Source: Octopus sinensis
Lineage: Eukaryota
Direction of reading: 5' to 3'
Assembly: GCF_006345805.1 (NCBI RefSeq)
Contig: NC_043001.1
Span: forward strand, 16,740,001 to 16,804,000
Length of the DNA: 64,000 bases
The position numbers and the translations under genes were made by a program. Every line of letters begins with the position of its first letter. The first letter of the stretch is position 1. Of this stretch, positions 271-58,022 are shown one piece after another. Below the pieces are notes generated by a model that was not told the origin of the DNA, did not search any database, and was given only the letters and a program-made list of their open reading frames with translations.

Positions 271-408
271 TATATATATATATATATATATATATATATC
301 AAACAAAACCTGCTAGTATATATATACTACATATATATATATATAGATATATATATATATATATATATATAGATATTATATATATATATATATATATACT
401 ATATATAT

Positions 409-690
409 AAGGAAATGAAGAAAATCTGACAAAATAATTTAAGTAATTTAAGTAATTTAATTAGGTGAAAGTTCTTTTTAACCGGTTGCGCATTTGTTAT
501 GCTTATCAAAAGTTTTTCCTCTTATCCAGATAAGAGGGAAAAAAAATTTTGATAAGCATAACAAATGCGCAGCCGGTAAAAAGAACTTTCACCTAATTAA
601 ATTACTTAAATTACTTAAATTATTTTGTCAGATTTTCTTCATTTCCTTTTTTATATATCACACCTGTGTTCTACATCTCCTTTTTTAAAT
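409..690. mobile_element. Fold-back hairpin element in (TA)n, probably PLE pseudo-LTR derived
   Basis: Near-perfect ~118-bp arms 409-526/529-648 plus a one-sided extension; flanked by (TA)n. Confidence 0.6.
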
Positions 691-1535
691 ATATATATAT
701 ATATATATATATATATATTATATATATATATATATATATAATATATAATATATATATTATTTATATAATATACCATAATATATACATAATATATATACTA
801 TATATATTAATATATACAAACATAAATATATATGTATACGTGTATGTATATATGTATATGTGTGTGTGTAAGTATGTATAAATGCATATCTATCTATCTA
901 TCTATCTATCTATCTATCTATCTATGATATGTGTCATCGTGCCAGATGTTATGTCTTCTGTTGCCGAGCCTTTGAGTAATCAGTACAAACATGGAAGCAG
1001 TGAGTGCAATGTGCAATATAGAAATAGCGTTTCTGATAGAGAGGTCAGACGTGATCGCTAGTCCCATGATGTCATTAATGATACTGCGTGTCTTTCAAGC
1101 AACACGAATTGTAAAATGTTTACGATACAATGTCTTGATAAAGTATGTCTTCTTAAACGTGTGTATGTGTATATGTGCGACTATACGCATTCATACATAC
1201 ACAGACATAACTTCGTGCCCGTGAATGAGTTAGTGTGTGTGTGTGAATGCTGTGGTTTAGTGATTACTGTATTGGGCTGTTGATCATAAGGTTGTGTTTC
1301 GATCCCTCAACCGGATAAGTACTAGTGCAAGCCTCTTCTGTGTCCCGGTGGGTTAAGAGTGGGAGTGCTGAGGTGTCTATGCCGTACCTTATCGGGACGA
1401 AGACGAGCACCTAAAACAGTTATTGAAAGTATGGCACAAGCTGCCAGCTCGTGCTCGCTTGCGAGTGAAAGCTTAAAGGCACGTGAGTCGAACAGAAATG
1501 TATTTTATTCAATGAAACCAGTTTTCATACGGCCG

Positions 1536-1965
1536 TTCTTGTGGGTAGTAAAGAAATAGGTATTTCGTCTGCCGCTACGTTCTGAGCTCAAATTCCGCCG
1601 AGGTCGACTTTGCCTTTCATCCTTTCGGGGTCGATTAAATAAGTACCAGTTACGCACTGAGGTCGATCTAATCGACTTAATCTGTTAATTCGGCGGAATT
1701 TGGACTCAAAACGTAAGGACAGACGAAATACCTATTTCTTTACTACCCACAAGGGGCTAAACACAGAGGGGACAAACAACGACAGACAAAAGGACTAAGT
1801 AGATTATATCGACCCCAGTGCGTAACCGGTACTTATTTAATCGACCCCGAGAGGATGAAAGGCAAAGTCGACCTCGGCGGAATTTGAACTCAGTACGTAG
1901 CGGCAAGACGAAATACCGCCAAGCATTTCGCCCGGAGTGCTAACGATTCTGCCAGCTCGCCACCT
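1536..1965. mobile_element. SINE family A, two opposed copies
   Basis: Core GCCTTTCATCCTTTCGGGGTCGAT..AAGTACCAG on + (1612-1650) and on - (1826-1870); tRNA-like head on - near 1960. Confidence 0.8.
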
Positions 1966-2002
1966 TAAACGTTTCTGCCAGCTCGCTGCTCAGTCTTCTC
2001 AC

Positions 2003-2320
2003 TGGCATTCCGTCGGTTACGACGATTTAAATTCTAATTGATTAGATCAACAGAACAGCCTGCTCGTGAAATTAACATTCAAGTGGCTGAGCACCCCACA
2101 GACACGCGTACCCTTAAAGTAGTCCTCTGGGAAATTCAGCATTTCGCAGAGTGTGATAAGACCGGCCTTTTAAATCACAGGTAAACTCATTTTTTTTGTC
2201 AACCGAGTGGAGTGGATCAACGTGAAATAAAGTGTCATACTCAAGGACATAACGCGCCGCCGGAAATCGAACTCAGGACGTTACGACTGCGTGTCGAATA
2301 TCCCAAACGCTAAGCTATAC
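2003..2320 (-). mobile_element. SINE family D
   Basis: Homologous to the copies at 6103 and 60799; tRNA-like B box on the minus strand. Confidence 0.75.
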
Positions 2321-54268: not shown

Positions 54269-55774
54269 ATTCCCTGTAACTAACTCGGATAAAATTAGTT
54301 CAATTTAGAAATTAGAGGATATATTTAGATGTAAAATTAGGTAATAAATTATGCAGAAATTAAGAGTTAACCTTGTTTAATCTGACAATCTGACAACCTA
54401 CATATTTGATTATTTTTTTCGCTGTATCTGTTTGTTTGTCTAGCAGTCCACTTGTCTGCCTCTGTCTGTCTGTCTGTCTGTGTGTTTTTCTGTCTGTCTA
54501 TTTATCTATCTAATTTTCTATCTTTCTTTCTATCTATCTATCTATCTATCTATCTATCTATCTATCTATCTATCTATCTATCTATCTATCTATCTGTCTG
54601 TCTGTTTTTTGTCTACCTGTATGTCTGTCTGTATGTATGTACGTATGTCTGTCCCTCTTTCTGCCTGTCTTTCTATCTATCTATCTATCTATCTATCTAT
54701 CTATCTATCTATCTATCTATCTATCTATCTATCTATCTATCTATCCAATCCCGTCTGTGTGCAGCCCTGTGTGGTTAAAAAAGAAACATATCTATCTTTT
54801 TTTTATCTATCTATCTATCTATCTATCTATCTATCTATCTATCTATCTATCTATCTATCTATCTATCTATCTATCTATCTATTATCTATCTATCTATCTA
54901 TTTATCTATCTATCTATCTGTCTGTCAGTTTTCTTTTGTTTTTACAAGTCAATCTACATTTATACCTCTCTATTTGTAAGGGGAATGAGACAGACAGACA
55001 GATAGAGACACACACACAGAGATAAAGTGCCAGATGAAAGGATTTATAGAGTATTAAATGAGTAAATGAATGGATGAGCGGATGAGTTGACAGTAGATGA
55101 CGGGATGTCGTAGGGTGGGGGAAATCGTGTGTGGAGGGGGGGGTGAAGTTGTAGGATGAATGGGGCCGAGGAATAAATAGTGTGGAAGGATGGGTGGCGC
55201 GGAGGAATGAACGATGTAGAGGACGAGATGGGGTATGGAAGGGTGGATGTTGCGGGACAAGAGAAAGAGTGAGAACGGCGGATGGATGATATAGAAGGGG
55301 AAATATTGCGGAGGAAGGGATGATGTTAAGGAATGGAGAGAGGAAGGATGGATGGCGATGCGAGAAGAATGACATGTCAGGAAAGATGGTGAAGAATGTT
55401 GAAAGACGCAGAGGAGTGAATGGCTCCGATGGAGGGATGGATTGTGGGTGGTACGGGAGGAGAGGGGGTGGATAGTAAAAGACTGGTGAATGGTTCTGGG
55501 GTGTAAATGATGCGGAGAAGTGAATGTGAGTATGAGTGAATGGACGGATAAAACAACGGGTGGATGAATGGGTAGATGAATAAATAGATATGTGCACGGA
55601 GAGTAAGTGGCAGGGAAGATGGAAAGAGAACGAGACAGAAAGTGAGGGAGAGAGAGAAAGATAGATAGGTAGATAGATAGGTAGATAGATAGATAGAGAG
55701 AGAGAGAGAGTGAGAGAGAAAGTGTAGTAAGTACTACTGGTACTTGATAGTAGTGAGTATTTAGTTATTTATGT

Positions 55775-56109
55775 TCTTTTATTTGCTTCAGTCATTTGGC
55801 TGTGGCCATGCTGGAGCACCGCCTTCAGTCGAACAGATCGACCCCAGGACTTATTCTATCGGTCTCTTTTGCCGAAGCGCCAGAATACGGGGACGTAAAC
55901 ACCAACATCGGTTGTCAAGCGATGTGGTGGGAACAAACACAGACACACAAACATATACGACAGGCTTCTTTCAGTTTCCATCTACCAAGGTTTTGATCGG
56001 CCTGAGACTATAGTAGAAGACACTTGCTCAAGGTGCCACGCAGTGGGACTGAACCCGGAACCATGTGGCTGGTAAGCGAGCTACTTACCACACAGCCACT
56101 CCTGCGCCT
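55775..56109 (-). mobile_element. SINE family B
   Basis: Homology to 33015. Confidence 0.85.
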
Positions 56110-56375
56110 ATGTGTATATAAATATAATTTGCATCAGTTATTTTTTAATTGTTTTAGTTATTGAACTGTGACCATGCGACTGAATATCTCTGAGGGCTTT
56201 AGTCGAACACATCGACCGCAGTAGATTCTTTTTTGTTTGTTAAGTTTGGCACATATTCTATTGATTTCTTGTCCAACCCAAAAATTACGAGGGCGTAAAC
56301 AAACTAACGCCGGATATCAAGTGTCAGAACGACAAACATAAAACAGGCATACATAAATTGATATGTATATATGCA

Positions 56376-57228
56376 TCTGGCCGAGTAGGAGCAAATATCA
56401 GAATTGAACAGCCGAAATTTGCTATGATGATTCGGTGTCTGACTGAAGATTGAAGGCTTCGAATGATTTGTCTGTGTTCCGTGTTCGTCCCTTCCTGTAT
56501 TTCACGTTCATTATATATAAAAACATTCATTCTTATATTATTGCGGCGTTACGTGCACCCCCCCCCCGTTTGTTGTCCAATTTTAAACCCTGCACGACTT
56601 CTATACACACTGTCTTTCCTACCCGCCATTGCTTCTTCACCAAACTATTTTGGCGCCCTCCGATTCTTCCCCCTCTTCCTCCATCCTCCTTAATCCTTCT
56701 TTCTCCTTTTCTCTTGGTCACTGATTCTGTCCCCTGCCTTCCACCCTCTTTGATTCCTCCTCTCTGTCTCTCTTCTCTCTCTCTCCTGCGACCTGCTGAT
56801 TCTTAACCATTCTGTTGGCCATCGTATCTTGACCAACATGTGTCCCCGCTACCGAAACGGTAATTTTTCTACGCCAGCTGCTATGTTGTTTGGTTTTGTC
56901 TCATTTGGTCTAAAGTCGTATGACAACCACCGTTATATATATTTTGTTTATTCATTACTGTTTTCAATTTCGTTTTCGTCTCTTGTATTTACATCCGTCT
57001 TGTGCGTTCACATTCCTGTCTTCTACCAAGAAATCTAATGCTTACAGCTTAGTTTTTTTCTTGGGGCTGGCAGAGTTGGAGCAAATTCAGAATTGAACAG
57101 CCGAAATTGCTATGATGATTCGGTGTCTGACTGAAGATTGAAGGCTTCGAATGATTTGTCTGTGTTCCGTGTTCGTCCCTTCCTGTATTTCACGTTCATT
57201 ATATATAAAAACATTCATTCTTATATAT
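56376..57228 (+). mobile_element. Unclassified element with ~160-bp terminal direct repeats ending on (TA)n
   Basis: 56376-56538 repeated at 57067-57227. Confidence 0.55.
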
Positions 57229-58022
57229 AACATATATATATATATATATATATATATATATATATATATAATATATATATATAATATATATATATTATAT
57301 ATATATGTAATATTATATATATATATATATATATACGCATTTATATATCTTACATTTTACACACACACACACACACACCACAACCACACACACAACACAC
57401 ACACATATATATATATATATATATATATATATATATATATATATATATATGTAAGGTCTGGGGATCGAGGTGTAGGAAGGAAGTTAGCTTCGAGCAATCC
57501 GTAGTAATATAAAAACACAACTTTCAGGAACAATAGTGGTTTATTCAAACGGAATGTTGCGGATTATTTTTCTTCGGAGAACGATGAGCAGGAAAATAGT
57601 TCTTTTTATATAATTCCAGGTGGGTGACCTGCGTTAAAAAAAAAAAACAATAGTTACGGAATGGAGTAGGAGAATTCCGAGCTACATATGTTACATGACA
57701 AGTGGAACCTCAGAAGTGGTAAAATTGAAACGAGGTGTATATCGCCGGCTACCCATCAGGCCAAGATATCTTAACTGGATTAAAGGCTACACACACACAT
57801 ACACACATTCACGCACTCACACATGCGCACACAGACACACGCATACATACGCACACAGACACGCGCATACATGTGTATGTATAAACATACATGTGTACAT
57901 ACATACTTACTTACATGCACGTACGCACACACACACACACACACACATATTGGGTATATAAGCTTACATACGATATCTCATATGGTGCATCAAGAAGTAA
58001 CTAGACGAACATACATGTATAA

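Follow-up and report, generated by a model that had tools for sequence, protein, structure and literature searches.

Penelope-like elements docked on (TA)n tracts of the Octopus sinensis genome: target or product?

A 64,000-nt stretch of Octopus sinensis DNA (contig NC_043001.1, positions 16,740,001-16,804,000, of a 2.72-Gb assembly; the window hereafter) holds many Penelope-like elements (PLEs) whose ends lie against (TA)n microsatellite tracts, in places from both sides of one tract. Do these retroelements insert into tracts that already exist, or do they seed and lengthen tracts on insertion? An initial annotation of the window had left both possibilities standing and added that either could feed the microsatellite load of the genome. 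We find that several unrelated PLE families do dock on (TA)n, in this window and elsewhere in the genome, and that the tract is probably their target.

Element ends at (TA)n

We counted an end as abutting when at least 8 bp of (TA)n began no more than 8 nt from it. Outside the window, eight families (M, C, A, I, H, D, L and B, lettered as in the list below) were scored in the top-scoring 20-30 genome matches per terminal query, with queries free of TA; 9 window-derived loci and duplicate flanks were removed, as were a further 9 loci (3 retroelement-retroelement junctions, 5 at reference ends, 1 mis-anchored). Ends of 3' type adjoined (TA)n in 193 of 236 cases (198/243 before the 9-locus removal), compared with 692 of 57,479 random positions (1.2%), so the enrichment proposed as a check was found. 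Ends made by 5' truncation did so in 21/76 cases (23/86 before removal), more than 20-fold above background. Family by family, 3' ends at TA numbered 29/30 in A, 21/29 in B, 24/34 in C, 23/28 in M, 29/32 in L, a young family with copies 98% identical, and 28/29 (median 43 bp) in D, a very young one with copies 99-100% identical.

Best-match selection is biased to young, intact ends, and an unselected sample of 120 evenly spaced 10-kb stretches (1.2 Mb in all) was therefore checked. There, H-type ends stood at TA in 8/9 and 9/10 cases, and ends of short interspersed elements (SINEs), used as controls, in 0-12% (14/115, 6/149, 4/132, 0/41 and 0/26). Elements with inverted arms that were found de novo had an end at TA in 30 of 86 cases, a few of the 30 being inflated through masking, as against 2.35% of 2429 control intervals.

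Within the window, (TA)n of at least 8 bp makes up 4.2% of the sequence (3.0% of the 1.2-Mb sample). Among the 24 junctions initially annotated, 23 abut (TA)n as defined above. The weak one, 34730, has 6 bp of TA followed by (TACA)3 and a 15-bp TA run; at 3810 the run is only 9 bp long. All seven two-sided tracts are present (3530|3579, 7935|7978, 9316|9356, 10250|10261, 19150|19182, 29102|29154 and 38730|38757), and that at 19150|19182 is repeated in mirror orientation at 19668-19703. The two exceptions named at the outset, 14441 and 61714, also stand: both ends of each element are free of (TA)n. We add four docked ends (410, 2437, 28485, 41695) and two exceptions, 7622 without TA and 2854, where (TC)n precedes TA.

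Some ends of other elements in the window abut or contain (TA)n as well, namely Helitron-like 3' ends (270, 49213) and one SINE family. The former belong to a 400-bp family with a TC start, a hairpin and a CTAG end (238-270, 12822-13219, 48821-49213, 58018-58415), which we take to be Helitron-like; two of its four 3' ends adjoin (TA)n. The SINE family has an internal CA/TA microsatellite and lies at 13663-14090, 16716-17103, 33009-33415 and 34381-34698.

Did the tract come first?

The GIY-YIG nucleases of these families probably nick TA tracts that are already present, with the reverse transcriptase (RT) priming at the nick and hammerhead-bearing passengers using the same route. A nick in an existing tract would supply the primer; a single nick would yield a 5'-truncated copy, whose 5' join would often delete the upstream half of the tract, and if both strands were nicked, the copy would be head-to-head and flanked by TA at each outer end. 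Converging pairs would arise when a later element hits the tract that remains next to an earlier one. Each insertion would probably alter net tract length little.

That (TA)n serves as nuclease target is supported here and agrees with what has been published on Neptune, Naiad and Hydra PLEs: passages of PMC8557442 name (TA)n as the preferred target of Naiad, have almost all Hydra families inserting into it, propose the linker as the cause of the Neptune bias and credit the Neptune preference to Arkhipova 2006. Docking by Neptune- and Hydra-type PLEs is most likely this already known preference, and its mechanism the known targeting.

Young arrays with two 3' ends (head-to-head) carried TA on both sides in 11/11 cases for D and 11/12 for L. 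The amount of TA per 3' end, 24-25.5 bp, was close to 23 bp, the value predicted if background tracts, sampled with a length bias, are cut at random, and the two-sided sum was 55 bp where the same model gives 58 bp. Between the tandem units of D and L (TA)n is absent, so the tract is no templated tail; an element-encoded (TA)n tail is thereby ruled out.

One site filled by an L element has an element-free paralog (C17), in which 48 + 23 bp of TA surround an unexplained 34-bp piece. The paralog thus has a long tract without an element, which supports the tract as target. The piece itself has 9-bp inverted arms and sits inside the tract (L344:118-155; G000:C17:13298380-13298660); no second copy was found among the sequences examined. 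Seven haplotig flank searches returned the query locus alone in five cases, a repeat in one, and the filled allele together with this paralog in one. Short-read contigs of four public runs over 17800-20150 contained no joint skipping an element, and TA runs break the contigs.

Several observations weigh against a simple cut in a pre-existing tract. TA was present at 18 of 51 5' ends (family H left out), compared with about 68% for clean insertion (p = 7e-7); target loss at the 5' join has therefore to be assumed. The two-sided sums of D and L are long (medians 91 and 73 bp), reaching at least 60 bp in 16/23 cases against 49% expected. At the paralogous site, 71 bp of TA plus the 34-bp insert compare with ~122 bp (~35 + 87 bp) in the filled copy, and the paralog is too diverged (94-97%) to time or measure a change in the tract. 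In the older family H, (TATG)n or (CA)n often follows TA/TATA, and 13/27 ends have less than 8 bp. Finally, in the part of PMC11167929 considered, Poseidon, the sole full-length PLE tested in vitro, prefers ATT over (TA)n.

An unlikely alternative is that insertion begins at short TA sites, which then grow wherever priming occurs, either because the RT slips on a short UA-rich template patch, a telomerase-like addition of repeats, or because staggered nicks duplicate part of the tract. Some counts speak for it. Two priming ends go with twice the flanking TA of one (55 vs 28 bp, p = 1e-5), TA stands at 82% of 3' ends and 28% of 5' ends, the longest flanks belong to the youngest families, and the filled site is longer than its paralog. 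Short TA-alternating patches occur at some RT starts (7 nt at the short ends of A and C, 4 nt at the tail end of L). The same numbers, however, are given equally by a random cut in a length-biased tract followed by 5' deletion; the ends of M, B and D lack the patch; the tract of the paralog is long already; and long tracts may simply be better targets. TA microhomology as a universal feature of RT starts was rejected, since it was found for A, C, L and I only. Slightly more doubtful still is the specific version in which Neptune/Hydra-type RTs anneal nicked (TA)n to a short UA patch and add TA repeats, each priming end lengthening the tract. The 5' deficit and the long D and L sums keep extension alive, yet they also fit 5' deletion combined with a preference for long tracts. 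The earlier suggestion that elements seed or extend (TA)n is not required by our counts, given the fit of TA lengths to a random cut, the TA-free tandem units and the paralog.

Could the tracts instead have arisen later or passively, AT-rich ends seeding microsatellites or elements surviving in TA-rich neutral DNA? Some ends are indeed AT-rich, (TC)n lies between family-C ends and TA in several copies, and 3' ends of one SINE group (SINE-a) reach 12% at TA. Yet the youngest families, with copies 99-100% identical, already have the longest tracts (as in D), junctions are base-exact with H, C and N ends finishing in C-rich letters, and the paralog carries its tract without an element. We consider a passive origin highly improbable, and insertion into existing tracts remains our preferred explanation.

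The families and their elements in the window

Affiliation with PLEs was judged from domains, motifs and layout. Family M (29155-30660) combines an RT half with a CX4CxxC-type linker and a Pfam GIY-YIG match. Copies of family C have an M-type RT and nuclease (~60% protein identity to M); the linker motif CGRSNCGTC, seen in locus L013, is also present in C. A CX2-5CxxC linker is common to Neptune and Nematis, and the label Neptune-like for M and C may cover either clade. The frame upstream of family I shows, read by eye, RWK, DKT and CxCX5C motifs and a nuclease without CCHH (RIKWK, SDKT and CTCRDKSKC in L318; CTCSDKSKC at 19978-20941 of the window), a set like the Hydra-clade signature described in passages of PMC8557442; a Pfam scan of this frame gave no match. 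In these translations, M, C and I show the order typical of endonuclease-bearing (EN+) PLEs, RT followed by a C-terminal GIY-YIG.

In A and H the nuclease remnant alone was seen, as a GIY-YIG C-terminus upstream at two loci (L214/L215) and as a GIY-YIG-like remnant upstream in locus L081, respectively. The copies seen of families B, D and L are non-coding units or stubs that bear hammerhead-like motifs (that of B by eye, upstream in L337). For E, F, G/N, J, O and P, membership is suggested by layout or by a hammerhead-like core only. The layout of EN+ PLEs, in which insertions are partly tandem or inverted and one end bears a tail, was observed. Two fixed 3' end positions per family were found (A 0/31, C 0/35-41, M 0/43-49, B 0/97, I 0/75, and also in D and L); family H has one end position only. 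Hammerhead cores were predicted by motif scan in H, J and G and by eye in B, D, L, N and O. Among the 150 of 218 matches listed from an Rfam scan of the window, none was a hammerhead for the cores of H, J, G, B, D, L, N or O; those listed are sub-threshold microRNA-like hairpins and one sub-threshold hammerhead, at 62652-62700 on the - strand (Hammerhead_1, 31 bits, E 0.001), outside the listed elements.

The elements of the window are as follows (coordinates, strand where assigned, description).

410..688, + strand: family A; inverted arms and tail, outer ends both in (TA)n; Neptune-like stub
2437..2789, + strand: family B; inverted arms and tail, (TA)n at both ends
2854..3529, + strand: family C; 3' end of a Neptune-like element, retaining part of a GIY-YIG (3066-3167); TA adjoins the tail end and (TC)n(TA)n the short one
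3578..3809: older family-D copy; inverted with tail; tract 3530-3577 common with C
7622..7935, + strand: family E; inverted arms and tail; TA at the tail end, not at the short end
7979..8820, - strand: family F (B-related); partial tandem; 3' end on tract 7936-7978, common with E
8807..9315, + strand: family G (N-related); inverted with tail; end at TA 9316
9356..9509, - strand: family H stub; hammerhead motif; TA at the 3' end
10050..10248, + strand: 3' end of family I (Hydra-clade-like)
10265..10721: family D; 363-bp non-coding unit, inverted with tail; (TA)n at both ends
14441..14931: older family-D copy; (TA)n at neither end
16034..16169, - strand: family C stub; 3' end on the 94-bp tract 15940-16033
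18949..19929: ends of families I and J facing one tract; two mirror copies around TA 19414-19439
19978..20941, + strand: Hydra-clade-like remnant; CxCX5C linker and GIY-YIG without CCHH, from the translation; 5' truncation adjoins TA 19930-19977
28485..28575, - strand: B-related stub; TA at the 3' end
28625..29101: family L; 544-bp non-coding tandem unit, inverted with tail; (TA)n at both ends
29155..30660, - strand: family M; 5'-truncated, Neptune-like; C-terminal half of RT, CX4CxxC-type linker, GIY-YIG
34731..34924, - strand: H-related stub; hammerhead motif; adjoins a compound TATA/TACA/TA tract (weak case)
38665..38945: two H-related subfamilies face to face across TA 38731-38756
41477..42166, + strand: family N; partial tandem with inversion; short TA runs at its ends (41695, 42167)
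56377..57221, + strand: family O; 98% copies, partial tandem; 3' end on the 85-bp tract from 57222
61714..61996: inverted-arm element P; (TA)n at neither end

A second Hydra-like remnant, a relative of 19978-20941 with a short TA run at its 3' end, lies at 35114-35942 (- strand). Elsewhere in the genome, 17 or more family-L units of ~544 bp follow one another head to tail in a satellite-like array (L315, G000:C19:41998001-42008000). At three loci a young long interspersed element (LINE) of L1/Tx1 type occupies one and the same site within the family-D hammerhead unit, with a 17-bp duplication (L311+L312, G000:C8:31.745-31.760M; L313+L314, C18:47.036-47.051M; L316, C8:11.145-11.155M). Its open reading frames (ORFs) encode zf-CCHC (ORF1) and endonuclease, RVT_1 and zf-RVT (ORF2), and tandem copies occur at two loci. 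This LINE appears to target the PLE passenger.

We compared these elements with described systems, as far as the parts of each source considered here go. The resemblance to Neptune in PMC8557442 extends to the C-terminal GIY-YIG, the CX2-5CxxC linker, tandem and inverted insertions, a 30-50-bp tail at one end and (TA)n flanks hiding target duplications; we see no difference in kind, and the counts for this genome are the new data. Family I shares with the Hydra clade of the same paper the RWK, DKT and CxCX5C motifs, the nuclease without CCHH and insertion into (TA)n, but its unit of ~5.6 kb with a long 3' region contrasts with less than 3 kb there. D and L resemble animal non-LTR (non-long-terminal-repeat) retrozymes, which are non-autonomous PLEs, in being non-coding, tandem and hammerhead-bearing with PLE-type inversion and tail (bioRxiv 10.64898/2026.07.22.740005); the passages of that paper concern vertebrates and a coral, and (TA)n docking and molluscs lie outside them. 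For Anolis Poseidon PAc in vitro, as here, two internal RT starts define the tail, and both-strand nicking and extension occur at an AT-rich target (PMC11167929). There the RNA at the RT start is non-homologous to the cut DNA, whereas here some starts have short TA patches. Thirty-one recently active Penelope-like families have been reported in an octopus, and the part of that paper considered here gives no analysis of their targets (PMC13282606). A literature search, mainly of freely accessible main texts with supplements aside, found no empty-site or tract-extension test for PLEs.

Convergence, mirrors and microsatellite load

The initial annotation held that PLE families often converge on one tract from both sides. 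Convergence is real in the window, with the seven tracts above, but we found no genome-wide excess. The far side of a family-flanking tract was the 3' end of a window family in 4/195 cases, against 46/3302 random tract sides (p = 0.36), in a test whose library was restricted to window families and is incomplete. Within the window, 7 distinct convergent pairs compare with 3.2 expected after length stratification (p = 0.045), a weak result from a circular library. An apparent two-sided excess among de novo elements (43 vs 13.6) was set aside as unusable, since it counts TA runs inside elements. Convergence seems to follow simply from a common target where PLEs are as dense as they are in this window.

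Two adjacent and nearly perfect inverted duplications are centered on TA tracts (17941-18949 and 18949-19898). The segment 18461-19413 repeats the two flanks of a single tract in reverse complement, fused at a short word that they have in common; template switching at a TA hairpin or an assembly artefact may account for it. Short-read contigs of three of the four runs span 17941 unbroken, with X1 depth 58 vs 46-61 (about single-copy). These contigs do not support the first mirror; they cannot prove its absence, and a heterozygous rearrangement is possible. Smaller inverted duplications of a TA-tract flank (36-46 bp) occur at 41218-41327 and at 18393-18428 vs 19981-20016, one of the two within a SINE.

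Such mirrors, and the contigs that cross 17941, would suit the idea that adjacency and convergence are assembly artefacts, long reads folding back or being mis-joined at (TA)n. A comparable mirror was found at only 1 of 1716 random tracts, so mirrors are too rare to explain the docking pattern. Moreover, 6/7 convergent pairs join different families, the seventh consisting of two subfamilies ~80% alike, and family ends fall on the same base in dozens of loci. We regard a general artefact as the least probable of the explanations considered.

The proposed feedback loop, in which PLEs drive the microsatellite load, was unsupported. Recurrent non-SINE junctions touch at most 258 of 1670 random TA tracts (~15%), an upper figure with element-internal TA runs counted in, and window families touch 46/1651. 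SINE-like repeats touch 344/1670, and the SINE family with an internal CA/TA run supplies more flanks of such random tracts than any other single source. By these counts, PLEs are not demonstrable as the main source of the load.

Our counts confirm the published target preference in a genome with several active PLE clades, and with the very young families D and L a second haplotype would allow a direct test of whether insertion changes tract length. Extension, were it true, would link a sister enzyme of telomerase to microsatellite growth, and telomerase-like repeat addition at interstitial sites would go on renewing the target that the elements themselves use; our data can be explained without it.

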